Made by a program: the position numbers and the translations under genes
In this document: positions 741-28,965 of the stretch, piece after piece
How positions within the stretch are numbered: position 1 is the first letter of the stretch
Layout of the letters: every line of letters begins with the position of its first letter
DNA from: Candidatus Saccharimonadota bacterium
Lineage (GTDB): Bacteria; Bacillota_I; Bacilli_A; Mycoplasmatales; Hepatoplasmataceae
NCBI RefSeq assembly: GCF_000582535.1
Contig: NZ_CP006932.1
Span: 30,001-62,000, forward strand
Length of the DNA stretch: 32,000 nucleotides
Reading direction: 5' to 3'
Notes under the pieces: generated by a model
The model's input: only the letters and a program-made list of their open reading frames with translations
What the model was told of the DNA's origin: nothing
Databases searched by the model: none

Positions 741-2711
741 ATGAAAAAGCAAAAGTATTTAGAATGATTAAATATCATTGGTTTAGTTTTAATCTTAATT
801 CTAGTAATTATAATGATAGCTTTACAGGATTATATAGTTATTCTATTATCAATTGCTTTTTTAATTTTATTTATTTTTTTTATTGTTGACATAATTTATT
901 ATTTTTATACTGGATTTATCAATGAACAAAAAATCAGTAAATTAATTCCAGATATTGAAAGTCAAATTGAAAGAAATTTTAAATATGGTTATTTAATATA
1001 TGATGAAAATGATCGAATAATTTTTATTAGTAATTATTTATCTCTAGTGGGTTTTAATCGTTTATTAGGAAAAAGAATTACTGATTTAAAATTAAATGAA
1101 AAACAACAAGCAAAATCAGAATTTTTATTTGATAATAAAAATTACGAAACAATTAAATTAATTAAAAAAAGAATAATTCTTTTTAGAGATATTTCGGAAA
1201 TATCAGCATATCGCGAGCAAATTAATAGTAATTGAATTTCTGTATTTTATATTGATAAATATTATGATCAGAAAATGGCAGAAGATGAATTAAAAAGAAT
1301 TTCAATTGATGTTAAAATTAATTCCTTTTTAAGAGAATGAATTTTGAAGAATAGAGGAATTTTTAAAATTGAAGGAGCAAATGATAAAAATGTACTTTTA
1401 ATTTCCAAATGAAAATATTTACATGAAGATATTTTAAATGAAAAACTTTTAAATGATCTTATTAAAATTATGAATGAAGAAGAACGAAAAAATGTTTCAA
1501 TTTCAATTGGTTGTTCTTATGGTAATTTTGAATTAAATAAATTATCAGAAAGAGCAAAAAAATCTTTAGAACTTTCAAAAATGCGTGGAGGTAATCAAAT
1601 TACAATTTTCCATGCAGATAATCGTTTGGAAAATGTCGGTGAAAAATCAACAAATGTAACTGAACAAAATATTCGAAATCTAACAATATTTGCTGAAAAT
1701 TTAAACAATAATTTAAATAAATATTCTAATTTTATTATTATTTCCCACGATAATGCTGATATTGATGCTGTTGTTTCTTCAATTGCAATTGCAAGATATA
1801 TAAATCATTTTTCAATTAAAGCAGAAATTTTAATTTATAATTTTGATAATTCTGCAAGTAAATTATTTGCTAATCTTTCAGAAAATTTAAAAAGATTATT
1901 TATTGATCCAAGAGAACTTAAAAATCGTTTAAATAATAAAACAGGAATTTTTATTATGGATGTTTCAAATACAGTTTTAATTAAAGAATGAAATGAAATT
2001 AATAGTAAAGTTGTAAGCGAAAATATTTTCTTAATTGATCATCATACGATTAATGAAAAAAATATCAATTTAATTGGAAAAAATAGTTATGTTGATATAT
2101 CTTCATCTTCTACTTCTGAAATTATTGCGAATATTTTTAATATTAATCCAAAATTTAGAAATTTAATTACAAAAGAAGAAGCAGATTTATTAATTTCAGG
2201 AATATATACTGATTCAAAAAATTTTACAAGAAATATTAGTCCTTCTACTTGTGATGTTTTATCCTATCTTACTCATGCTGGAGGAGAAATTGATAAAGCT
2301 GTTGATATTTCAAAAAATGATCTTGAATATATTGAATTGCTAATTGAATTATTTAATTCTATTAGCAAACCAATTACAACAAATATTTTGTTAGGTGTTA
2401 TGCCTAAAGAACAAGTCCTAAATGATATTATTGTTTCAAAATTAGCAGATGAATTACTCAATTATAATAATATTGATGCTTCATTTGTATTTGCAAAAAT
2501 TAGTAATAATAAATACAAATTATCAGCAAGATCTAATAATAATATAAATGTTCAAAAAATTTGTGAATCTTTAGGTGGTGGTGGCCATCATAATATTTCT
2601 GCTGTTACATTTGAATTAAAAGATAATCAATATGATAAAATTTTAAGTAAAATTAAAAATTTAATAAAAAGATATGAACATAAAATTGATAATATCTTAG
2701 AAAATAAATAA
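741..2711 (+). CDS. gdpP: GdpP-like membrane DHH/DHHA1 phosphodiesterase (probable c-di-AMP phosphodiesterase)
   Basis: Four track fragments in one frame are joined through TGA codons, giving 656 aa. The N-terminus has 2 TM helices, followed by a PAS-like segment and a degenerate GGDEF-like segment (MRGGNQ). DHH motifs are present (ISHDNADIDAV, LIDHHT), and the DHHA1 motif is GGGGHHNISA. Confidence 0.8.
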
Positions 2712-2739
2712 TTTTTTAAATAAAATTATTATTACAAAT

Positions 2740-4089
2740 ATGCAGACAGATGATACTAATTATTATAAGGATAATGAAATATATTCAAAAGAGACTGAAA
2801 AAGCAATTTTAGGACTTTTGATATCTAATCCAACATTACTTGCAAAATGTTCAGGAAAATTAAAAATTGAACATTTTTTTAATTATGATTATCGTTTAGT
2901 ATATCAAACTTTATTGGATAATTTTGAAAATAAATTAAAAATAGATTCGACACTTTTAATTGATTTACTTAGTAAAAGTAAATCAGGAAAAAATACTAAT
3001 TATTGAAAACAATTGATTTTTGATATTTTATTTGATAAAGGAATTGAATCTAATCTTTCAGAATATATTCAAACAATTCAAGACAAAAAACAATTAAGAG
3101 ATTTAAATCTAACTTTAAAAGAATCAATTAAAAATATTTATGAAAATCAAAATAATCCACAATTTGTAATTGAAAAAATTGAAGGAGATATTTTTTCAAT
3201 TACAAAAGATAGAGAATTAAAAGATTTTGTAAATATTAATGATCTTACAAATACTTATCTTGATAAATTAGAAAAAATTAAGAAGAGTGGTTATCAAGAA
3301 GGAATAAGAGTTAAATTAAATCAATTTGATAATTTGCTAGGTGGATTTAAAAAAAGTGAATTTATTGTTCTTGCAGGTAGACCATCAATGGGGAAAACAG
3401 CAGTTGCTTTACAATTTATTTTTAATATTTCAAATACAAAAAAAGTAGCTTTATTTTCACTTGAAATGCCTTCGGAATCAATTATTCAAAGGTTTATCTC
3501 AAATGATTCAATGGTAAGTCAAGATGAATTAAGAAATTATGATAATTTAAATCAAAATAAATTATTAAGAATTGATAATTCAATTTCAACTTTAAAAAAG
3601 AAATTAATTTGAATAGATGATAAAGCAGGAATGAAAATAGGAGAACTTATTTGAAAAATTCGTAAATTACATTCTGAAGCTCAATTAGATATTGTTTTTA
3701 TTGATTATCTTCAATTAATTGAATCAGAAAATATAAGATATGAATCAAGGCAAGAATCAATTTCTAATATTTCAAGAATTATTAAAAGTTTAGCAAGAGA
3801 ATTAAATATTCCAATTGTTGCTCTAAGTCAACTTTCAAGAAAAGTTGAGACAAGAGAAGAGAAAAGACCGATGATGTCTGATCTTCGAGAATCAGGAGCA
3901 ATTGAACAAGATGCTGATGTTGTTTTGCTTTTATATAGGCCAAAGTATTATAATAATAAAGATGATGATTTTAAAAACAGTATTGTAGAAGAATTAGAAA
4001 TAATTATTGCTAAAAATCGTAACGGTAAAACCGGAATTGCTAATTTAGATATTAATATGGAAATTGGAAAAATAACCTCATCGAACTAA
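2740..4089 (+). CDS. dnaB: replicative DNA helicase DnaB
   Basis: Three same-frame fragments are joined through TGA, giving 449 aa. Walker A is GRPSMGKTA. Also present are ...IDYLQLI..., SRIIKSLARELNIPIVALSQLSR and SDLRESGAIEQDADVV. Confidence 0.93.
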
Positions 4090-4107: not shown

Positions 4108-4338
4108 ATGGCATTTGCATTTAAGATAATTTTATTAATAATTTCAATAGTTTTATTAGTCCTTCTATATTTACAATCAGGAAAAGTAAAAAATGTTGGA
4201 TCTTCAATAATTGGAACAAAAGATGTTGAACTTTTTGAAAATATTAAACACCGTGGAAGCGATCGTGTTTTACATATCATTACAGTCACTCTTATAATTT
4301 TATTTGTTGCAATTTCCTTTGCTTTACTTTTTATTTAA
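4108..4338 (+). CDS. secG: preprotein translocase subunit SecG (small 2-TM protein)
   Basis: 76 aa with two TM helices flanking YLQSGKVKNVGSSIIG, which resembles the SecG loop. The position upstream of rnr-smpB-ssrA matches the Firmicutes secG-rnr-smpB synteny. Confidence 0.65.
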   Translation: MAFAFKIILLIISIVLLVLLYLQSGKVKNVGSSIIGTKDVELFENIKHRGSDRVLHIITVTLIILFVAISFALLFI

Positions 4339-4344
4339 CAAATA

Positions 4345-6431
4345 ATGAAAAATGAAATAGAAAAATTGTTGAAAGAAAATACCAACGGAATTAGCTTTAA
4401 ACAATTAAAAAATCAATTAAATCTTAATAAACAAAACGATGGATATAAGTTAAATCAATGATTAAATGAACTTATAAAAGAAGAAAAAATTTTTTATCGT
4501 AAAAAAACAGAATTATATTATATTAAAGATCAAAAAAGTGTAATTGGTACTTTTCGTACTACATTTAAAGACTTTGGTTTCGTAGAAGATGAAGAAGGAT
4601 CTATTTTTATTCCAGCAAGATTTGTTCTTAATGCATTAGAAGGTGATACTGTAAAAGTAGTTTTATTTTCTGATCTTAATAATCCTAAGAAAACTGATGA
4701 TAACAGAAGAGCAGGAAAAATTGTTCGTGTTATTAAAAGAAACGGTGGAAATATTGTTGGAAGAATAAAAAAAAAAACAATAAGTTAGAATTTGTTCCTG
4801 ATGATATTGATCCTAAATATGAATATCAAATTGTAGATAATAATAATCTAAAAGAAGGACAAATTGTAATTGTTACTTTTAAAGATTTTGCTGATCGAAA
4901 AATTTATGTTACTCTTAAAAAAATTTTAGGAGATGAAAAAGATCCTAGTCTTGATTATTTATTAATAAAATATAAAAATAATCTAAAAGAAGAATTTTCT
5001 GAAAAAATAATAAATGAATTAAATAATAAGGATTTTTCAAAAGAAAAAAATCAAGAAAAGCGCATAGATTTAAAAGATCGTTTAATAGTTACAATTGATG
5101 GGGAAGAATCAAAAGATTTAGATGATGCAATTGATTTTAAGATTATAAATGATAATTTATATCATTTAGGGGTTCATATTGCTGATGTTTCTCATTATGT
5201 GAAAACAGATAGTGAGTTAGATTTTGAAGCTTATGATCGTGGTAATTCGATTTATCTTATTGATAAAGTATTTCCGATGCTACCTAAAAAATTATCAAAT
5301 GATCTTTGTTCTTTAAACCCTAAAGAAGAAAAATTAACAATATCATGTGATATGAAAATTAATAGTGAGGGTAAAATTTTAGAATCTAAAATTTATCCCA
5401 GTATTATTAAATCTTCTTATAGGTTAACTTATAATGAAGTAGATAAACTTTTAAATAATGAGATTCCTTTACTTTTTAATGATAAAAATTTATCCAAAAT
5501 GCTAATAGATGCAAATAAAATTGCAAATAAAATGCGTAAATATAAATTGCAAAATGGGATGATTGATTATCAATTAAAAGAAGTAAAAATTAAATTAGAT
5601 CAAAACGGAAATCCAATTTCTATTTATGAAAAAATTCAAACACCATCAGAGGCCTTAATTGAAGACTTTATGGTTGCTGCAAATGAGTCGGTTGCTAAAT
5701 GATTTTCAGATCATAAATTACCGACCATTTTTCGCGTACATGCAAAACCAAAATATGAAAACTTAGAACCTTTTTATAATATTTTAAAATTATTTAAATT
5801 TGAATTTAATTTTAAAAATTTAAATTCCAGAAATTTTCAGAATTTTTTAGAAAAATATAAAAATAATCAAAATATTGAAATAATTAAAAAAATAATGATT
5901 CAAGCAATGGAAAAAGCAATTTATCTTGAAAGAAATGATGGACATTATGCTTTGGGATTAAAAAATTATCTTCATTTTACTTCACCAATTAGAAGATATC
6001 CTGATCTTTATGTTCATAGATTATTAAGACTATTTTTATTTCAAAATAAAAAAGATATTGATAAAAAAGATCTATTAAATAAACTTCATGAAATTGCTAA
6101 TCATTGCTCATTAAAAGAAAAAGAAGCAATGGTAAGTGAAAGAAAATTGGCAGATATTAAAAAAGTTCGTTTTCTTGCTAATAAAGAAGGAGAAAAAATT
6201 ATTGGGACAATTGTTAATTTTTCAAATTTTGGTATTTTTGTTGAATTAGAAAATAATACACAAGGAATGATAAGATTAGATAATTTAAAATTAAGTGCAA
6301 AAAATTACGAATATGATGAAAAGAAATTTTTACTTAAAGTAGATGAAAAAAAATATCAAATTGGTGATCAAGTGTCTGTTAAAATAATTTCATTAGATAC
6401 AATAAGAGGATTAATTGAATTAGCATTATAA
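4345..6431 (+). CDS. rnr: ribonuclease R (VacB), reading frame interrupted by a 1-nt deficit in an A11 tract at 4767-4777
   Basis: The N-terminal part (4345-4785, frame 1) encodes a winged-helix plus cold-shock-like region, GTFRTTFKDFGFVEDEEGSIFIP, and ends at TAG 4786. The rest (frame 3, readable from about 4779) carries RNB motifs (TIDGEESKDLDDAI, GVHIADVSHYV, YALGLKNYLHFTSPIRRYPDL) and a C-terminal S1 domain. The total is 2087 nt, which is 3n-1. Confidence 0.85.
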
Positions 6432-6438
6432 TTTTATT

Positions 6439-6885
6439 ATGAAAATAATTACAATAAACAAAAGAGCAAAACGAGATTATATTTTATTTAAAAAATATAT
6501 TGCAGGAATTTCCTTATTGGGAGGAGAAGTAAAATCAATTCGCGCAGGTAAAGTTGATATTACAGGCTCTTTTGTAACTTTTGATTATAAGAATAATTTA
6601 GTAGTTCATGGGATGAATATCGAACAATATAAATATCAGACACAAGATCATTTTGATAGTTTAAGAACAAAGCAGCTTCTTTTAAATAAACAAGAAATTA
6701 GGAAAATAAATGATAAAATTAAATTGGAACGATTAACTGTTGTTCCAACAAAATTATTTATAAATGATAATAGCTTAATAAAATTAGAAATTTCTCTTGC
6801 AAAAGGTCGTAATAAAAAAGATATGCGAGAATATTTAAAAGAGAAAGAATTTAAAAAAAGTAAAAAATCATATATCAATATTTAA
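6439..6885 (+). CDS. smpB: SsrA-binding protein SmpB
   Basis: 148 aa reading NKRAKRDY...GISLLGGEVKSIR.GK..I..SFV. It lies directly upstream of the tmRNA. Confidence 0.93.
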   Translation: MKIITINKRAKRDYILFKKYIAGISLLGGEVKSIRAGKVDITGSFVTFDYKNNLVVHGMNIEQYKYQTQDHFDSLRTKQLLLNKQEIRKINDKIKLERLTVVPTKLFINDNSLIKLEISLAKGRNKKDMREYLKEKEFKKSKKSYINI

Positions 6886-6890
6886 TTTTT

Positions 6891-7234
6891 GGGGGTGCAG
6901 TGGATTTGACAGTTAAGGATAAGCTTAAAGGGCAGTGGTCTAGTAAACCATAATACTATTTAAAGATAATCGGAAACGATGATTCTGCTGTTGATTTTGC
7001 TTTAATGCAAGAACAAAATTTTCAAAATTCAAACTTTGCATTAGCATAATAAATTAACACTTTAACTATTTTTTTTCGCTTGGAATTTAGTTAGAGAGGC
7101 TTACAAGCGAGTGTAGAATTATTTAAGTAGTGAGTTAAACTTACTTTGTTTGCTAATTTTTTAAATTAGATAAACTGTAGATCTTTAAGTATTTTTTTAA
7201 TTGGACTCGGGTTCGATTCCCGACACCTCCACCA
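6891..7234 (+). ncRNA. ssrA: tmRNA (SsrA)
   Basis: The 5' end GGGGGTGCAGTGGATTTGACAG pairs with the 3' end CACCTCC-ACCA, giving a 7-bp acceptor stem with a G3:U70 pair. A T-arm GGGTTCGATTCCC is present. The internal tag ORF reads GGA AAC GAT ... TTT GCA TTA GCA TAA TAA (6972-7052), encoding GNDDSAVDFALMQEQNFQNSNFALA. Confidence 0.9.
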
Positions 7235-19674: not shown

Positions 19675-19701
19675 TTTACTTTAATAATAAAGGTATTTAT
19701 T

Positions 19702-20616
19702 ATGAAATATAATAATAAACAAAAAATTACCAAAGCTGTAATTCCTGTTGCGGGACTAGGAACTAGATTTCTTCCTTTTACAAAAACAATTCCAAAGGAA
19801 ATGTTACCAATTTTAAATATTCCATCAATTGAATATATTGTAAAAGATGCGGTGAATGCTGGAATTAAAGATATTATTTTTGTAACTTCTGCAAGAAAAA
19901 AAGCACTTGCAGATTATACTGATTCTTATCTTTGATTAGAAGATGAATTACGAAAAAAAAATAAAATTGAGGAGTTGAAATTAATTCAATTCCTTCCAAA
20001 AATTGCAAATTATATTTTTGTAAGACAGTCAAAACAATTGGGATTAGGAGATGCTGTATTAAAAGCAAAATATGCAATTGGTAATGAACCCTTTGCTCTA
20101 CTTTTGGGAGACGATATTTTACTTAATAATTTTAAAAATATTACAAATGATTCAATTTTAAAAAATTTAATAAATTCTTATCAAAAATATCAATCAATAA
20201 TTGTTCTTTTAAAAAAAATTGAAGGAAAAGAAATTGAAAAATACGGAGTTGTAGGAATAGAAAAAAAAATTGATCAAAAAAATTTCCTTTTAAATTCACT
20301 TATTGAAAAACCAACATTTAAAAAAGCTCCTTCAGATCTTGCAATTATGGGTCGATATATTTTAGAACCTAAAATATTTGATTATCTTGAAAAAGAGCAA
20401 ATAGATCCAAATACAGGCGAAATTCAATTAACTAATGCAATAAGTAAATATCTTCTAGATAAAAATAATGTTTATGGAGTATTATTTGAGGGTAAAAGAT
20501 ATGATATGGGAAATCTTTTGGGTTTCTTAGAAGCAAATATTGATTTTGCTCTTAATGATAAAAAATATCGTAAAGTATTTGCTGAACTTTTAAAAGAAAA
20601 AATTAAAAATATTTAA
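19702..20616 (+). CDS. galU: UTP-glucose-1-phosphate uridylyltransferase
   Basis: [27 protein letters not shown] and [13 protein letters not shown]...LLGDDI. Two fragments are joined at TGA 19933-19935. Confidence 0.9.
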
Positions 20617-20627
20617 TAATTATAATC

Positions 20628-21494
20628 ATGAAACAAATTACTTTTGAAGAATTTCAAAAATTAAATCAAGAAGGATTTATTAAGATAAATAAAGCAATAA
20701 TTTCCTTAGGAATAAAATGATGAGCTCATTCAGGTACCTTGATTGGTGTAGTTCGCGAGAATGGATTTTTATCATGAGACGATGATATTGATATGGGAAT
20801 GGCAATTGATGATTATTTAAAATATCTCGAAGATTTAAATAAAATTGCAGAAGAAAATAATTATTATTTTGCTGATCGTTTTAAAAATATAGGAATGACA
20901 GTCTCTAGATTTATTTATAAGGAAAAATTTATTATTTCTTATGAGGGAAAAAAATATGTTTCTTCTCCTTTTATAGATATAATGATTGCAATACCTTTTA
21001 AAAAAGAAAATAAATTAAAATTTAAAATTTGAGAATGACAAAATAAATATTTTTTTCTATTTAGTAGTCTTCCTCCTGTTCTTCCAAAAATTGATACAAG
21101 ATATGGTAGAGTACGCAAATTACATTGATATCATCAACTTGGCTCAGTAGTTGGACAAATATTACTTTTCTGAACAATTCCTTTATTTTATTTACAAAAT
21201 TATTGATTAAAAAAGAAAGCAAAAAATAAAAAAAAATATAAAAATTTAATTCTTTTTCATTCTTATACTTCAAGATTTTTTATATATAGAAAAGATCAAT
21301 TAATTGAAAGAAAAATTTTAAATGGAAAAACAAAAATTTATATTTCAAAATTCTATATTAAAGAATTAAATGCTTCTTTTGGAAAAAATTGAACAAAAAA
21401 ACCACCAATTGAAAAACAGATTCCTCATCACATAATTTATAATCCTTATAATCCTAAAAAGGAACCAAAAATTTATCCACATATTGTAAAATAA
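20628..21494 (+). CDS. licD: LicD-family phosphotransferase, copy 1
   Basis: WWAHSGTLIGVVRENGFLSWDDDIDMGM is the LicD/NTase-fold signature. 288 aa are read through 7 in-frame TGA codons and checked codon by codon. It is a paralog of 27578-28435. Confidence 0.8.
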
Positions 21495-21878
21495 TTAATT
21501 TTCTTTTTCAATATTATTAAAAGATTTTAAATCTTTTTCTCTTTTTAATTCTTTTTTAAAAATAAGGGGAATAGACATTATTGAAAGAAAAGATCCTATT
21601 GCATTACCTAAAGCTCCAATACAGGTAATTAAAAGGGCTTCGCTGATATCAATATCAGTAGTTCCTTCTGGTGTTGATCAATAGATAGCAATTCAAGCGA
21701 TTAATGGAACAGTAATTGATGAAATAAAAGTAGCATATACTCCATAGATTGCAGCACTTACATATCTATTTCTTTTTATTTTGAATATTTTTATATTAAA
21801 AGCCAATGATATTGTGTATTGAGCAATTAAAATTATCAAAAAGAAAACAAATAAAAATCATCCTGTATTAATGTTCAT
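21495..21878 (-). CDS. small 3-TM membrane protein, downstream member of an overlapping pair
   Basis: 127 aa reading MNINTGWFLFVFFLIILIAQYTISLAF..KIKRNRYVSAAIYGVYATFI..CIGALGNAIGSFLS. The minus strand was translated codon by codon with TGA=Trp, and no TAA or TAG was found. The K/R-rich loop and tail fit an N-out, C-in topology. Confidence 0.6.
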
Positions 21879-22227
21879 TATTTTTTTCCTTTTGTTCTTT
21901 TGCTTTTATTTTTTTATCATGACCAACTTTTTTAGATACATAAGGAACTAAAATTGCAGCAAAGAAATTACCAATCGCTGTTGCAAATGCAGCTATTAAA
22001 ATAATTCATCAAGGAGCTTGCTCTCCATCTGTTAATGCAACAACTATTAGCGGTGTAATTGCCATCGTTAATATAAATAAAAAAGATGCTACAGCTCCCA
22101 TTAATGCTGCTGTAAAAAATTGGTCTTTTGATATCATATATATTCGATAATTAAAAAAAAATCCTACTATTAATTCTACAAAAGGATATACAAATAATAT
22201 TATTAGTGCTACTTCTCAATTTTCCAT
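21868..22227 (-). CDS. small 3-TM membrane protein, upstream member of an overlapping pair and paralog of the downstream one
   Basis: 119 aa reading MENWEVALIILFVYPFVELIVGFFFNYRIYMISKDQFFTAALMGAVASF...AAFATAIGNFFAAILVP. Its stop overlaps the next gene's ATG by 11 nt (ATGAACATTAA). Confidence 0.6.
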
Positions 22228-22238
22228 TTTCTTTTTAA

Positions 22239-22273
22239 ATTTAATTAAGTATACTCTTTATATTTAATTAAGT
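22239..22273. repeat. 12-bp direct repeat ATTTAATTAAGT x2 (22239-22250 and 22262-22273) in a divergent intergenic region
   Basis: Read directly from the sequence. Each copy contains the palindrome TTAATTAA, and start-to-start spacing is 23 bp. Confidence 0.6.
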
Positions 22274-22285
22274 TATCTTAAAGTG

Positions 22286-22291
22286 TATAAT
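22286..22291 (+). promoter_or_regulatory. candidate -10 box TATAAT for the hydrolase/glycosyltransferase operon
   Basis: The consensus hexamer lies 27 nt upstream of ATG 22319. Confidence 0.3.
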
Positions 22292-22318
22292 TTTTTAGAT
22301 ATATTAAATTTATAAATT

Positions 22319-23038
22319 ATGAACAAAAAAAAAGATAATCGCGTTATATTATTAATTCATGGATTTAAGCGTGGAAATGAAAATGATTTTGAGTATTTAG
22401 AAGATCCTCTTATGAAATTTAATTTACCAATAATAAATTTTGAATATTATGATAATTATGATAAAAAAACGCTTAATTGAAAATTATTTTTTAAGAAAAT
22501 TTCTAAGCAAATGGAAGAATTGAAAGATAATGAAATAATAGTAGTTGGTTATTCTATCGGAGCAATAATTGCAATTTATTTAGAAAATTATTACCCAAAT
22601 ATAATTCAAGTTATATCAATCTATCCTGCTTTTAAAATTTATCTTTTTGATTGATTAAAAAGATTAAAAGATTTATATTTTAAAAGAAAAAGACTTAAGA
22701 AAAAAATTGGAAAAGAACGTTTTAATAAACTAAATGAAGCAGCAAAGAAAAATAAAATTGTTGAAAAGTATCCTGTAAAAATTACAAGAAATATTAATAT
22801 TTTTCGTTCAAAACTTAGAAAAAAAATAAAAAATATTAATATTAATAAAACAACTTTAATTTTATCTGAAATAGATGAAATCGTTCATTATAAAAAAACA
22901 TATAAATATATAAATAAATTTAATATAAGTGAGAAAATTATATTTTTTAATTTAAGTCATTATTCGGCAATGAAGGATGGACAAAATTTGCGTAATTTTA
23001 TTATTAGTGAAATTAAAAGATTTAATTTTGATAAATAA
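22319..23038 (+). CDS. alpha/beta-hydrolase (esterase/lipase-like)
   Basis: 239 aa, read codon by codon through the GYSIG motif (to about nt 22570) and by eye beyond it. Motifs are VILLIHGF, the nucleophile elbow VVGYSIGAI (GxSxG), a later SEIDEIV Asp and LSHYSAM His, in S-D-H order. Confidence 0.7.
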
Positions 23039-23058
23039 AAAAACTAGCATATTACAAT

Positions 23059-23775
23059 TATGAATAATATTGGTAAAATTAGTGAAAATGACAATAAAAT
23101 AATTCATTATATATGAATAAAAAATAAAGATGATATTCCAGCAAGTCAAAAAAAAATAATGAATAAGACAATAAGTCTTAATAGTGAATTTTCAATAAAA
23201 ATATGAGATTTAAATAATATTAATGATTTAAATATTAAAAGTAAGTATTTTAAAAAAGCAATTACTGAAAAAAAATGAGCTTTTGCTTCTGATTATTTAA
23301 GAGCAAAAATATTATATGAATATGGAGGTGTATATATTGATATAGATTTATATCCTTTAAAGAAATTAATTGAATTTCTTGAAGAAGAAGATGATTTTAA
23401 TTTATTGATTGGTTTTGAATATAAATATCTTATTTCTACAGGTTTTATATGAGCAAAAGAAAAAAATAATTTAATTTTAAAAAAATTATTAGAACATTAT
23501 GATTATTTTGATAATTTTAAAGAAGATAAAATTAAATTTATAGTAAATAATTATATTTGAACAAATATTTTAGTAGATGAATATAATTTAAAATTTGATG
23601 ATAAAAAACAATATTTAAAAGATAAAACTTTAATTGTTGATCATAGATATTTTTCTTCGATAAAAAAAATAAGATTAGAAAGTTATTTTTTACATAAACA
23701 TTTATTATCATGAAAAAAAAATGATTTTATGAAAAAAATAATGATGCAAATTTTAGCTTTTATACAAGAACATAA
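23059..23775 (+). CDS. GT32-like glycosyltransferase (DXD sugar-binding region family)
   Basis: 238 aa. IIHYIW..., then WAFASDYLRAKILYEYGGVYIDIDL matches the Gly_transf_sug/OCH1-like signature with a DxD motif. Confidence 0.7.
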
Positions 23776-23855
23776 AATTTTAAATATTTTCCTTAAAATC
23801 GAAATTAAATTTAAATTAAGAAGAGTCAAGAATATATATAAATATTTAATAAAAA

Positions 23856-24884
23856 ATGAACGATAAACTTAAAAGTAAAACATTTGGTGTTATTATTCCA
23901 ATTTATAATACAAAAAAAGAATGATTTTTAAAAGCAATAGATTCTGCAATAAAATCATATTTTGCAGTTGATAAAGATTTTGAAATAATAATAATAGATA
24001 ATGGTTCAGATAATAAAGATATATGAAAATATTTAAATGATAATTATAAAAAATACGATTTTATTAAATTAAAAAGATTTGATAAAAATGAAGGAAAACA
24101 AAAAGCAACAAAATATGGTTTTTATAATTTAAATGCAAAATATTTTCAAGTATTAGATTCTGATGATTGAATAGATTCTAATAAAATTAAAAATATTATT
24201 AATATTTTAAAAAAAGTAGATGGAGATATATTTTTTTTAAATTATTACTATTTTAATGATAAAAAGCAAACTATAAGAAAAGAAAGAAAAATTTATAAAA
24301 AATCTCCCCTTGATTATGTTAAATTAGAAAATATTCCAAGATCTTTTTGACATTTTAATGCAAATACAATATTTAATAAAAAATTTATGATTAATAATAA
24401 TTTTAAATTTCCAGAAACTAAAATTTATTATGAGGATGCTTATATGAATATGTGGAATTTATCTAAAATAAGAAATCCTTATTTTATTAATGATTCTTTT
24501 TATTATTATCGAGTTAATATTGGAGGAACAAATTTATCATCAACTAATAAAATGTTTGAATATATTGATTATTTTGAAAAAATGTATCGAGAGACCATTA
24601 AATTAGATTTTTCTAATAAAATTACAAGGAAGAATATGATTAATCTTTCAAGTTTACAATTTTTAACATTGTCATTTTTTTGAACATCAAAGGAAAAATT
24701 CAATGTATCTCGTAAAAAAATAAAAATTTTAAAAAAAGAAATTAAAGAAAACAAAAATTTATATTATGCAAAAGGTTTAAAAAGACCGAGAGTAACAATT
24801 ATTGGGGATTTACTTATATGAAATGGTTATTTGTTTTTTTTAATTAAACCCTTTTCAAAATTATTTATTAAATTTAGAAGATAA
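23856..24884 (+). CDS. family 2 (GT-A) glycosyltransferase
   Basis: 342 aa, verified codon by codon from ATG 23856 to nt 24387 and read by eye beyond that. Motifs are FGVIIPIYNTKKEW..., EIIIIDNGSDN, NEGKQKATKYG and FQVLDSDDWI (DxD). The C-terminus is hydrophobic. Confidence 0.8.
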
Positions 24885-24888
24885 AAAT

Positions 24889-25554
24889 ATGGAAAAAAAA
24901 ACACCTAATAAATATAATATTTGTTTAACTTATGGAACTTTTGATATGTTTCATTTTGGTCATCTTTCCCTTTTATTAAGATGTAAAAATCAATGTAATC
25001 AATTAATTGTTGGTGTTGCAACTGATAAATATAATAAATTTAAAAATAAAGAGTCATTTCAATCTGAAAATCAAAGATTTAATTTCATTAATATGCTTCC
25101 ATTTGTAGATAAAACTATTTATGAACATAATTTTTCCACACAATGAAAAAAAGATTACAAGAAATATAAGGCAAATGCAATTATTATGGGTGATGATCAT
25201 GTTGGAGAATTAGATTATTTAATTAAAGAGGGTCTTAATATTATTTATTTGAAGCGCACAACAGGAATATCCACAACAGATATTAAAGAAAAATTAAAAT
25301 GCAAAAAATATTCTTTTTTTATTCAAGAAAAATGAATTGAAACTAAAAATATATTTAATAGAATTAATAAAAATATAAATAAGAATGATCATTTTTCAAT
25401 TTTAGGAATAAGTAATAAGATTGAGGCACATTATGAACTTTATCAATTTTGAAATAATAGCAAAAAAGTAGATTTAATTTTCTTTTTTGATGATATTGAA
25501 GAAATAAATCTATTAAAAAGAAAAATTAATTACTGAAAAAAATTAAAAGGTTAG
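24889..25554 (+). CDS. tagD: TagD-like cytidylyltransferase, copy 1, with about 85-aa C-terminal extension of unknown function
   Basis: CLTYGTFDMFHFGHLSLL (HxGH) and RTTGISTTDIK are glycerol-3-phosphate cytidylyltransferase family motifs. The ORF continues through four in-frame TGA codons to TAG 25552-25554, giving 221 aa. Confidence 0.75.
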
Positions 25555-26394
25555 TCATTTAAATTTAAAGAAAATCATATAAAAGATTCATATTTTTGTT
25601 TTTAATTTTTTAATTTTAATTTCTTTTTTTATTTGTTTAAAATACTGTCTTCTTGTATTAAAGAAATTTTTATTTAAAGCATATTTTATAAAATTAGGTT
25701 TGAATGTTTTATCTATATTATTAGAGTATTTATTATAAAAATCTAATAAGATAACCAAATCATTTCAATATTCTTCTTTTTGTTTTTGATTTATTTTCCC
25801 TTTTTTTATTTTTTCCAATATATTATTGTATATAAGATAAGGTATATTAATATTTTTTCAACTAGAATCAATTCCAAAAGCCATTCCAATATATTGAAAT
25901 TCAAAGTGTTTAATATTAGTTAATAAATATTTTTTATTTTTAATTGCTTTTTTTGTTTTAAAAATCGTATTATGAGTTAATAAATTAAGTTTCTTATTAT
26001 TATATTTTTGTTCTCCACTTTTATATTTTTTATAAAATGAATGTTGTATTAGATCAACATTAGTATTAGTTAATTCATATATAAGATTTTTTAATCAATT
26101 AAAAATTATTTTATCTTTTGCTTTTATTAATTTAAAATATTTGCTGTCTATTTTTTCAAGATTTTCATATAAAAAATCCGTTTTTTTTAGATTTTTTTCA
26201 TTTTCTAAAATTGTTATCTTTTTATTAAAAGCTTTTGTAATTTTATAATTATTAATATAAATTATAATTTGTACTAAATTATCAAGAGAATTATCTTCTA
26301 AATATTTTTGGAAAAAATTAATTCTAGTAATTTCTTCTAAATTAATTTTTTCGTCAATTGTATATATAAAGCTTAATATTTTTTTGTTTTTCAC
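25543..26394 (-). CDS. hypothetical protein (Lys/Asn-rich), possibly a degenerate GT-A-like fold
   Basis: The track ORF 26095-26394 is extended through TGA codons to TAA (forward TTA at 25543-25545), giving 283 aa. The start is GTG. The N-terminal pattern ILSFIYTIDEK...VQIIIYINNY...NEKNL...YFKLIKAKDKI loosely mimics GT2 strand/helix spacing but lacks DxD. Confidence 0.4.
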
Positions 26395-26551
26395 AATATT
26401 TTGTAATTTTACACTTCTTATTATTAATTTATAATAATTATAAGAAACAAATATTTAAAATATTATCATATTTTTTATAAAAAATAATTTTTATTAATTT
26501 ATATAAATTTGTATTTATAAAATTTGCTATTATTAATATGAAGTGAAAGAA

Positions 26552-27568
26552 ATGGGATTTTTACTACAAAGAGTTAATGATGATTTTTTAAAAAAATATT
26601 TTAATAAAAATGAATATTTTGAATATTTAGAAAATATAAATTATGGAAAATACATAAATAAAGAAATTTATTCAAAAATAAAAATTTTAAATGATTATTT
26701 AAAATCAAAAGATTTCGAATTATTTAATTTTATTACAGAAAATATAATATCTTTTGATCAGGAAAATAAAAATATTTTAAAAATTTATGATGATTTTTTT
26801 ATCTATCATCAAAGAATACTTTTAATATTTTTTGAAAGTTTTACACAATTTGAGAAATTAATTAAAAACAAAATAATAAATTCTATTAATTATTTAAATG
26901 TTAAATCTCTTTATCAATTAATTAATATTATTATTAAAGATAGCAAAAAGAATGAAAAGGAATTAAAAGGATTTCCCAAAAGATGTGAAAATATTTTATC
27001 ATATTTTTGTGCTCCTAATTTAGAAGAAGTTCGTGAAAAAATCGGAATATATAATATTAATGAAAAAGATTCTTTTAATATGTTTTATAAAAAAGCAAAT
27101 AAATCAGAAAAAAGATATTTTGATTATAAATTAATAAATGAATTTTCTTTTTCTGATATTAGTGAATTTTTTGAAATTCTTAAAAAGCAAAATTATAAAA
27201 ATTATTTAAATATTAGAGATTTTATTAAAGATCTTTTGGGTGAAAAGAAATATAATAAATTTTATGAAGATAATCAAAGCGATAATGGAATAAAACCAAT
27301 TATAGATTGATTCTTATCAAATTATAAAAATGTAAAAATATTACGAAATAAAATTATGCATAATAAAGTTTTATTTGCTAATATAAAAGAATTAAATAAT
27401 GGAATAAATAGTTTATTGAAATTATCTAATCAAAAGAAAAACAATATAGGTGATATTACTTTAAAAAAATTTTTAAAAGAAACACTTTCTATTCTTGGAA
27501 AAATTAAACAAGAAAAGGCAAGGAAATTTTTTAAGGAGAAAATAATAAATTTAGAAGATAAAAATTAA
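26552..27568 (+). CDS. Abi_2 (AbiD/AbiF)-like HEPN-motif protein, candidate abortive-infection/defence protein
   Basis: Track ORFs 26543-27310 and 27356-27568 share a frame and are joined by TGA 27308-27310. The start is ATG 26552, or alternatively GTG 26543. The C-terminal region reads WFLSNYKNVKILRNKIMHNKVLF, which contains R-x4-H (27344-27361). Overall length (about 340 aa) and helix-rich composition fit Abi_2. Confidence 0.5.
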
Positions 27569-27577
27569 TAGAAATTT

Positions 27578-28435
27578 ATGAAGAAAATAAGTTTTGAGGA
27601 ATTTCAAAAATTAAATTTTGAAGGTTTTAAAAAAATAAATGAAAAAATACTACAAAATAATATAAAATGATGAGCTCATTCAGGATCATTATTAGGATTT
27701 ATTCGTGATAAAAAATTAATTTCTTGAGATGATGACATTGATATGGGGATGAGATTATATGATTTTAAAAAAAATTTTCAATTATTATCTAAAATTGCTA
27801 ATGAAGAAAATTATAAATTAATTGATAGGTTAGATTATTTTGGTCTTGATGTTGCAAGATTTATTTATAAGGAAAAATATATCATTGAATATAAAGGAAA
27901 AGAATATATATCCTCTCCTTACATTGATGTAATGATGGGTGTTTCTTCTAAAAATAATAATCTTTTGAAAAGAAAATTGTGATCTTGAACAAATAATTAT
28001 TTGTTTATATTTAATTCTTTCTGAAAACCTCTTCCATATTTTGGTTGAAAATTTAATAAAGTTAAAAAAATTCATTGATATGAACAATTTAGTGTATTTA
28101 TTGTAAGAATAATTTTATTTCCTTTATTTTTAGCTTTACCATTACAAAATTTATGATTAAAGCATAAAAGTAAAGATAAAAGTGATAAAGTTTCATTTTA
28201 TTATAATTACGATAATTTAGGAATAATATATGATGTAAATAAATTGCAAGAAAAGAAAATAAATGATTTTAAAATTTTAGTAAATGATAATTATTTAGAA
28301 GAATTAAATTTAAGATTTAAAGAATGAAAGATTTTACCCTCTAAAGAAAAACAAATTCCTCATCATATATTTCTTACACCAAATTTGAATAAATATAAAA
28401 ATAAATATAAAATAGATCCATTTATAATTAAGTAA
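27578..28435 (+). CDS. licD: LicD-family phosphotransferase, copy 2
   Basis: WWAHSGSLLGFIRDKKLISWDDDIDMGM. 285 aa, verified codon by codon through 10 in-frame TGA codons. It is collinear with copy 1 from N- to C-terminus (...KQIPHHI...). Confidence 0.8.
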
Positions 28436-28536
28436 ATAATTTTTAATTTTAATTAAATTTTTAGATAATATTATTGTTATTATTTATTTTTTAAATATTA
28501 ATTGATTAATTTTGGAATGGTTTTATAAATAATTGT

Positions 28537-28965
28537 ATGAAAAAATATAAAAATTGTATCACTTATGGAACATTTGATTTGTTTCATTATGGTCATAAAA
28601 GACTATTTAAAAGAATAGATAAATATTGTGAAAATTTAATTGTAGCAATTTCAACTGATCAATTTAATAAACTAAAAAATAAAAAAGCTTTTGATAATTA
28701 TATAGTTAGAAGTGAAAATGTTTTAAATTGTTCTCCTACTATTAAAAAAGTAATTAAAGAAGTTAATTGAGAACAAAAAATAGAAGATGTTAAAAAATAT
28801 AAAATAGATTGTTTTATTATGGGTTCTGATTGAAAAGGAAAATTTGATTATTTAGATAAGAATTGTGATGTTCTTTATTTAAGCAGAACACCTTTTATTT
28901 CTTCAACTTATTTGCGCAATAAAAAAATTGAAGAAAAAAATCTTCAAACTAATCATAACAATTAG
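28537..28965 (+). CDS. tagD: TagD-like cytidylyltransferase, copy 2 (short form)
   Basis: CITYGTFDLFHYGHKRLF (HxGH) and ...IMGSDWKGKFDYL...LSRTPFISSTYLR. 142 aa. Confidence 0.75.

Follow-up and report, generated by a model that had tools for sequence, protein, structure and literature searches.

The ribonuclease R gene (rnr) in a 32,000-nucleotide (nt) stretch of the genome of Candidatus Hepatoplasma crinochetorum, a gut symbiont of woodlice (Hepatoplasmataceae; contig NZ_CP006932.1, positions 30,001 to 62,000, forward strand; hereafter the window) is broken by a frameshift at a homopolymer of 11 A's, the A11 tract. The frameshift is real, conserved and old, it is located at the tract, and the reading frame downstream of it is under selection at the protein level. 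With a probability that we put at about 0.8, the frameshift is not only real and old but is also maintained, and is corrected at the A11 tract during expression of the gene.

All translations were made with genetic code 4 (TGA = Trp), which was recognised from in-frame TGA codons within conserved proteins; the GC content of the window is 22.1%. Frame 0 of rnr starts at ATG 4345, reads ...NGGNIVGRI-KKK-TIS across exactly 11 A's (4767-4777; no run in the window is longer) and meets TAG 4786-4788 after 147 amino acids (aa). From 4737 onward, the -1 frame has no stop codon until TAA 6429-6431. An earlier note on this DNA had described rnr as split by a deficit of one nucleotide within A11, and its start codon, tract and stop codon were all confirmed. 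Homology in frame 0 reaches NIVGRI, which ends at 4767, and homology in the -1 frame begins with LEFVPDD at 4785; the frame switch is therefore located within the tract or directly beside it. The tract lies in the linker between the domains CSD1 and CSD2, which varies in both sequence and length across mollicute homologues, with the conserved NIVGRI on one side and the invariant F-x-PDD on the other. Both non-productive frames end almost immediately (IKKKTIS-stop and KKKQ-stop). The break thus coincides exactly with an A/T homopolymer of at least 9 nt, as is expected of a gene rescued by slippage.

Adding one A to rnr gave an uninterrupted protein of 695 aa and 81.6 kDa, which reads ...GRIKKKNNKLEFVPDD... 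across the junction. As the earlier note had anticipated for a tract of twelve A's, this repaired protein is a complete RNase R, matching the TIGR02063 RNase_R equivalog from end to end (643.6 bits against a cut-off of 597.85; residues 1-695 of 695). It aligned to the B. subtilis RNase R 8cdu_C without a gap over the junction (E 3.7e-124), and the Pfam domains were located at residues 68-128 (OB_RNB), 152-219 (CSD2), 240-566 (RNB) and 614-691 (S1). The catalytic motifs of the part encoded in the -1 frame, which had been reported as intact, are indeed unbroken, with DGEESKDLDDAID from residue 252 and HFTSPIRRYPDL from residue 544. The repaired protein therefore displays the domain order HTH-CSD1-CSD2-RNB-S1 and the catalytic Asp cluster that characterise RNase R. 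The remaining attribute of an RNase R gene, one uninterrupted reading frame, is lacking, given that A11 shifts the homology to the -1 frame. Among the large genes of the window, rnr alone is interrupted.

The A11 tract and the same frame-0 TAG were observed in eight DNA sources, covering different sequencing platforms. These were the window itself (Illumina/SOAPdenovo assembly), AP027132.1 (a metagenome-assembled genome from Oxford Nanopore (ONT) and HiSeq reads), ENA ERZ923669 (a metagenome assembly, contig k127_470266), JGI 3300039426, and the Logan assemblies of SRR17180998, SRR35255167, SRR3458570 and ERR14656831. Their rnr sequences differ from the window at 0 (SRR3458570), 5, 10, 16, 16 and 36 positions, and at far more in ERR14656831 (L011), a divergent lineage of the crinochetorum clade whose synonymous divergence (dS) from the window is about 0.3-0.45. 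The exact 147-aa product of the first open reading frame (ORF1) was found on 9 contigs in NCBI, Logan and ENA, and a ninth sample, SRR29904083, is known from this identical ORF1 protein alone. One contig differed in tract length. L013 (Logan ERR14657703_85454), a distinct H. crinochetorum strain with 14 differences from the window over 1,178 nt, has A10 at 1180-1189 and is likewise out of frame, its ORF1 (P0123, 145 aa) ending in GRIKKKQ before the stop. Because the contig is 1,241 bp long and ends 52 nt past the tract, its A10 could reflect true variation in tract length or an artefact of low coverage.

Homopolymers are the commonest site of indel errors, the tract is the longest run in the window and one short contig reads A10, so that a sequencing or assembly artefact hiding a true A12 has to be considered. 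This explanation is most improbable, as the same length was recovered from Illumina/SOAPdenovo, from ONT and HiSeq, from ENA, from JGI and from several Logan assemblies, and was kept over strains with 0-36 substitutions as well as in the divergent lineage. Moreover, all nine A9 runs of the window are located in uninterrupted ORFs.

The repaired 695-aa protein was absent from a collection of about 15 billion proteins, and no full-length relative showed more than 76% identity. At the junction, GRIKKIKNNLEF and GRIRKINQKLEF are found in the closest full-length relatives, L003 and Ca. H. scabrum L004 (74-76% identity); both are in frame, have the length of the A12 repair and carry no homopolymer. 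The DNA alignment showed a single one-base gap at the tract in the crinochetorum clade relative to these sister species. The presence of in-frame sisters and a shared one-base gap indicates that the shift arose after the split from the L003/L004 species and before the divergence of the crinochetorum clade. The frameshift is therefore conserved over diverged lineages (eight DNA sources, L011 included), a pattern expected of slippage rescue. An A12 tract was never seen in about 10 samples, though such a tract should mutate often, which weakly hints, the samples being phylogenetically related, that being out of frame is, at the least, no disadvantage.

These comparisons bear on the age of the lesion, which the earlier note had presented as a recent, reversible or error-derived shift. 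The anatomy, the A12 repair and the appeal to poly(A) slippage in that interpretation hold, slippage that restores the frame being the best-supported explanation; the recency, the reversibility and the origin by error do not. Tract lengths in related strains were A11 in eight DNA sources, A10 in one and A12 in none, the same stop codon was shared with the lineage at a dS of about 0.3-0.45, and no in-frame allele was found.

Two other rnr loci were noted. L014 (P0055) was rejected as a second case, being intact under code 4. In L015 (ENA ERZ26693861, ctg123481_2x_l, 1098-3183; P0056), a distant mollicute rnr with about 48% identity loses its frame in the same linker between CSD1 and CSD2, owing to an additional base at a short T5 run (GTTTTTCATA; IIGRVF followed by IEENEKKFSVDD). 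Its neighbours dnaB, secG and smpB are unbroken; this lone contig is named '2x' and may contain an assembly error, and it was not used as evidence.

Selection on the part of rnr past the tract was estimated in the -1 frame. The window and L001 were separated by 26 synonymous and 9 nonsynonymous changes, giving a ratio of nonsynonymous to synonymous rates (omega) of 0.076, and codon position 3 took 27 of the 35 changes (p = 1.4e-12). Against L011, 76.5 synonymous and 40.5 nonsynonymous changes were counted (dS 0.447, omega 0.094), with 81 of 117 changes at codon position 3 (p = 4e-28). Wrong-frame controls on the same substitutions returned omega values of 1.5-6.6. ORF1 itself had an omega of 0.04, and the intact neighbours dnaB, smpB and orf592 had values of 0.07, 0.10 and 0.15, respectively. 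The obtained results demonstrate purifying selection on the downstream part that lies out of frame, which is a further expectation of rescue by slippage. No extra stop codons or frame-breaking indels were present in any lineage compared. The sole indel downstream was an in-frame 6-nt insertion within 2668-3899 of L011, which adds 'FA' in the variable region ahead of RNB; this contig ends within rnr.

A true pseudogene, in which the RNase R function has been or is being lost, would show an omega near 1 and additional lesions, and rnr shows neither. The coding sequence is formally interrupted, and the Av genome paper counts four pseudogenes that are unnamed in its text (PMC3942034). Loss of function is nevertheless barely credible in view of an omega of 0.08-0.09 past the break over a dS of up to 0.45, a position-3 bias with p down to 4e-28, the freedom of every lineage from additional stops and frame-breaking indels, and the intact catalytic motifs. 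The good preservation of the two halves of rnr reflects strong purifying selection on the downstream frame, and not a young lesion. The divergence among the lineages that share the frameshift was built up with the shift already present, and the gene must therefore work with A11. Alternatively, the shift could have arisen repeatedly; the out-of-frame state must then be favoured, and the conclusion that the gene works with A11 is unchanged. In M. genitalium, RNase R appears to be the sole 3' exoribonuclease and matures tRNA (PMC12320835), and its loss would therefore be costly.

The A11 tract also stands out from the base composition of the window. Only one A/T run of at least 10 nt was observed in 32 kb, namely the A11 of rnr, where a first-order Markov model predicts about 15, and runs of 9 were about half as frequent as predicted (9 observed, 16.7 expected). 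Given this deficit of long runs, A11 is not explained as a chance product of AT-rich composition. The counts suggest genome-wide selection against slippery homopolymers despite a GC content of 22%, and they fit a tract that is tolerated or favoured amid a general purging of slippery runs.

For the correcting step, transcriptional slippage is ranked first as the preferred, unproven mechanism, with a possible ribosomal contribution. RNA polymerase would realign on A11 and add one A (or drop two, or add four) in part of the transcripts, and ribosomes may also slip by -1 on A_AAA_AAA. The productive events (A9, A12 and A15 transcripts) would all specify the same protein save for KK, KKK or KKKK in the linker. 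Corrected expression would thus yield a full-length RNase R of 695 aa and about 82 kDa, whose predicted junction peptide after Glu-C digestion is ...NGGNIVGRIKKKNNKLE. Unshifted expression would stop 3 codons past the tract and release a 17-kDa HTH-CSD1 fragment.

Several characterised systems make such a correction plausible. In E. coli reporters, cassettes of 11, 9 and 7 A's gave 63%, 40% and 10% of -1 frame product, respectively (PMC3711429). The tssM1 gene of Citrobacter rodentium carries 11 A's ahead of a premature stop and produces mRNAs with 10-15 A's; its full-length protein amounts to 20-25%, and the effect is abolished by AAA-to-AAG changes (PMC4256274). Poly(A) frameshifts in Blochmannia and Buchnera are conserved without decay of the genes and have been ascribed to transcriptional slippage (PMC3017870, citing Tamas 2008 and Wernegreen 2010).

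Slippage by the ribosome rather than the polymerase would yield the same protein, and the 63% reporter figure for 11 A's lumps transcription and translation together. Ribosomal -1 frameshifting or sliding on A_AAA_AAA could accordingly be the main correction, as in dnaX, with transcription in a minor role. Two perfect heptamers of the X_XXY_YYZ type (A_AAA_AAA) are in frame 0 within the tract, at 4767-4773 and 4770-4776, and this heptamer is among those used in programmed frameshifting (PMC3711429). We regard a mainly ribosomal correction as a serious but rather unlikely alternative, given that runs of at least 9 A's are the classic substrate of transcriptional slippage and that slippage on the A11 of tssM1 was shown to be transcriptional (PMC4256274). 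The A10 of L013, if real, could be corrected on the ribosome only by a -2 or +1 shift, whereas slippage by RNA polymerase serves both tract lengths. Such an allele would favour transcription, because polymerase slippage yields a spread of lengths.

RNA structure downstream of the tract likewise offered the ribosomal explanation little. No downstream stem-loop or pseudoknot stimulator was detected, the sequence past the tract folding no better than shuffled controls (4778-4850, z = +0.14; 4778-4900, z = -1.64), and the downstream region of L011 (z = -1.9) adopted a different fold. Upstream, the 67 nt before the tract gave z = -3.8, and the hairpins at 4700-4733 and 4741-4758 folded better than shuffled sequence. 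This fold is not peculiar to the frameshifted clade, as the in-frame sister L004 reached z = -2.9, while L003 folds poorly. Three synonymous changes in L011 (C4743T, T4752C and T4755C) keep or strengthen the pairs of the proximal hairpin, and all of them are one-sided. The upstream hairpins were not counted as a specific stimulator on account of these one-sided changes and the similar fold in L004; the conserved NGGNIVG coding sequence probably gives rise to the structure incidentally. No stimulator typical of classic programmed -1 frameshifting was detected at the rnr tract.

The second open reading frame (ORF2) could also be translated by itself, through re-initiation after TAG 4786 at a non-canonical start (ATT 4806 or TTA 4785). 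The gene would then be truly split and would supply an RNase R without HTH and CSD1; no fusion would be needed, and the 17-kDa N-terminal protein would be optional. E. coli RNase R truncations that lack the cold-shock domains retain exonuclease activity. The NCBI annotation is exactly this 541-aa protein from ATT 4806, and purifying selection on ORF2 suits the split gene equally well. Independent translation is nonetheless poorly supported, because the -1 frame holds no ATG, GTG or TTG before GTG 5199 and because ATT 4806 lies past the invariant F-x-PDD strand of CSD2, which is conserved as FVPDD or FIPDD in all strains compared. GTG 5199 is itself downstream of the DGEESKDLDDAID motif, and a product begun there would therefore be without part of the active site. 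The absence of a Shine-Dalgarno sequence at ORF2 is uninformative, given that rnr and smpB likewise have none. A split gene further leaves unexplained why the break sits and stays in the sole run of at least 10 nt in 32 kb, and a fused product is to be expected from an 11-A run in any case. Taken together, these points make the split gene improbable.

The earlier note had further mentioned phase variation. In an ON/OFF scheme of this kind, slippage during replication would toggle the tract between A11 (OFF) and A12 (ON) in mixed populations. Long poly(A) tracts are known switches in mycoplasmas, as in p78 of M. fermentans (PMC3711429), and the A10 of L013 indicates that the DNA tract length may vary. 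The strains did not bear the idea out: an in-frame consensus was found in 0 of about 10 samples, the eight DNA sources with A11 and the one with A10 being the only alleles among them, and no 695-aa product is on record. In addition, rnr serves housekeeping and is neither a surface nor a contingency gene, and an OFF consensus is implausible for the probable sole 3' exoribonuclease. Phase variation is therefore held to be very doubtful.

Certain points weigh against correction of the frame at A11. It is from precedent that slippage is taken to correct the frame, with an efficiency that reaches 20-60% in A11 systems of enterobacteria. The purifying selection on ORF2 would be equally expected if it were translated by itself. 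Conservation of the tract was rejected as a sign of selection: AAA makes up 91% of the Lys codons, and tract conservation by itself is therefore not significant. No stimulatory RNA element was found upstream or downstream, and none is needed for an 11-nt run. Finally, circular sequencing (CirSeq) in Buchnera, where slippage was exponential with run length, detected no frame-restoring events (PMC5574713), which calls for caution.

By sequence-level criteria, the Hepatoplasma rnr belongs with the conserved homopolymer frameshifts that are corrected in expression, namely those of the endosymbiont genes, tssM1 and the dnaX of Thermus thermophilus. It resembles the Buchnera and Blochmannia cases in having a single-base indel in a long A run of an otherwise intact housekeeping gene of an AT-rich, reduced genome, with the frameshift common to diverged lineages without decay and with purifying selection downstream. 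Those hosts of the frameshift are intracellular gamma-proteobacteria, whereas Hepatoplasma is a code-4 mollicute that lives extracellularly in the isopod hepatopancreas, and the gene concerned is rnr. Long runs are purged in the Hepatoplasma window (1 against about 15 expected), while Blochmannia has more than 100 coding runs of at least 9 nt (PMC3017870). The molecular traits that define rescue by transcriptional slippage are a tract length that is heterogeneous in mRNA but not in DNA and a full-length protein, and both are predicted for the Hepatoplasma rnr.

The likeness to tssM1 is closest in the tract itself. Both genes have exactly 11 A's shortly before a premature stop, both are restored by one additional A, and both are expected to give a truncated N-terminal and a full-length product. 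No RNA stimulator lies near the tssM1 tract, and none was detected at that of rnr. The transcripts, the efficiency of 20-25% and the need for both isoforms were established experimentally for tssM1 (PMC4256274), while the case for rnr is made from sequence; tssM1 is an accessory secretion gene, and rnr belongs to core RNA metabolism. In the tau/gamma system, an A-rich slippery site within the essential housekeeping gene dnaX similarly lets a single gene encode a short product as well as a long one. The E. coli dnaX site uses a Shine-Dalgarno-like element and a stem-loop. Its mechanism is -1 programmed ribosomal frameshifting on A_AAA_AAG, and that of T. thermophilus is transcriptional slippage on A9 (PMC3711429, PMC5009743). 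The long product of dnaX is the unshifted one, whereas that of the Hepatoplasma rnr needs the shift and has no detectable stimulators. The phase-variable poly(A) genes of mycoplasmas such as p78 share with rnr a mollicute host, a coding-region poly(A) and a frame-dependent product, but they are surface or transport genes with segregating ON and OFF alleles, in contrast to a housekeeping nuclease with no ON allele in about 10 samples.

Beyond being tolerated, the frameshift might be used. We tentatively consider, as a possibility of low likelihood, that it sets a fixed ratio of a free 17-kDa HTH-CSD1 RNA-binding protein to the full-length RNase R. Much like the tau and gamma forms of dnaX or the pair of TssM1 isoforms, the two products would then be kept in proportion by the gene itself, which would regulate the dosage of the probable sole 3' exoribonuclease from within the rnr-smpB-ssrA trans-translation locus of a regulator-poor genome. 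On this view, selection for the out-of-frame state would be the reason why no A12 revertant turned up in about 10 samples, however mutable the tract.

The two Hepatoplasma genome papers make no mention of a frameshift, ribonuclease or RNase, the GeneTack survey contains no ribonuclease cluster, and RNase R occurs in the 2016 recoding review only within a reference title. As far as we could find, this is the first such case for RNase R and for the Hepatoplasmataceae. As a well-supported candidate, the gene extends the small set of chromosomal housekeeping genes that rely on slippage. Should RNase R be the sole 3' exoribonuclease of this organism, all 3'-end RNA processing and decay would hang on the infidelity of expression at one tract. 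The case further advises caution when pseudogenes are counted or metabolism is reconstructed in AT-rich reduced genomes.

The public annotation can be reread accordingly. At present, rnr is cut into a 147-aa 'hypothetical protein' and a 541-aa 'ribonuclease R family protein' from ATT 4806 (P0001, P0002, P0121), and the C-terminal ORF of the window is 100% identical to the 541-aa protein of Candidatus Hepatoplasma crinochetorum (P0001). Other pipelines give a 410-aa call from GTG 5199 or, with table 11, pieces of 167 aa and 178 aa. The frameshift was flagged by none of the rnr annotations seen. The locus would be better described as one recoded rnr gene than as proteins of 147 aa and 541 aa, the ATT start removing the invariant strand of CSD2.

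The locus is compact, with the order dnaB-secG-rnr-smpB-ssrA; the features are listed in Table 1. The rnr-smpB-ssrA operon arrangement is the same as that described for B. subtilis (PMC12320835). The transfer-messenger RNA (tmRNA) directly follows smpB, and its predicted tag peptide is GNDDSAVDFALMQEQNFQNSNFALA.

Table 1. Positions of rnr, its neighbours and other features in the 32,000-nt window.
Feature	Position	Strand	Description
secG	4108..4338	+	76 aa, directly upstream of rnr; PF03840 SecG on orthologues in L001 and other loci
rnr ORF1, frame 0	4345..4788	+	HTH and CSD1 (OB_RNB); 147 aa, 17.1 kDa; ends IKKKTIS
A11, putative recoding site	4767..4777	+	CSD1-CSD2 linker; two overlapping frame-0 A_AAA_AAA heptamers
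rnr ORF2, -1 frame	4776..6431	+	NNKLEFVPDD..., then CSD2, RNB and S1, to TAA 6429-6431
ATT	4806..4808	+	public-annotation start of the 541-aa P0001; after the invariant PDD of CSD2
GTG	5199..5201	+	first canonical start in the -1 frame; downstream of the DGEESKDLDDAID motif
smpB	6439..6885	+	148 aa, 7 nt past rnr; PF01668 SmpB on orthologues
ssrA (tmRNA)	6891..7234	+	ARAGORN; Rfam RF00023, 98.4 bits
LicD (twice)	20607-21494, 27572-28435		surface-glycan-like cluster
cytidylyltransferase-like (twice)	24844-25554, 28510-28965		surface-glycan-like cluster

The A9 runs of the window are concentrated away from rnr. Eight of the nine are located at 19953-24901, seven of them in ORFs of a surface-glycan-like cluster and one (22153-22161) in a neighbouring minus-strand ORF. 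The cluster (19675-28965) is surface-glycan or teichoic-acid-like and contains duplicated modules; besides the two LicD and two cytidylyltransferase-like genes, its members include a nucleoside triphosphate (NTP) transferase, a GT2, a DXD glycosyltransferase and an alpha/beta hydrolase.

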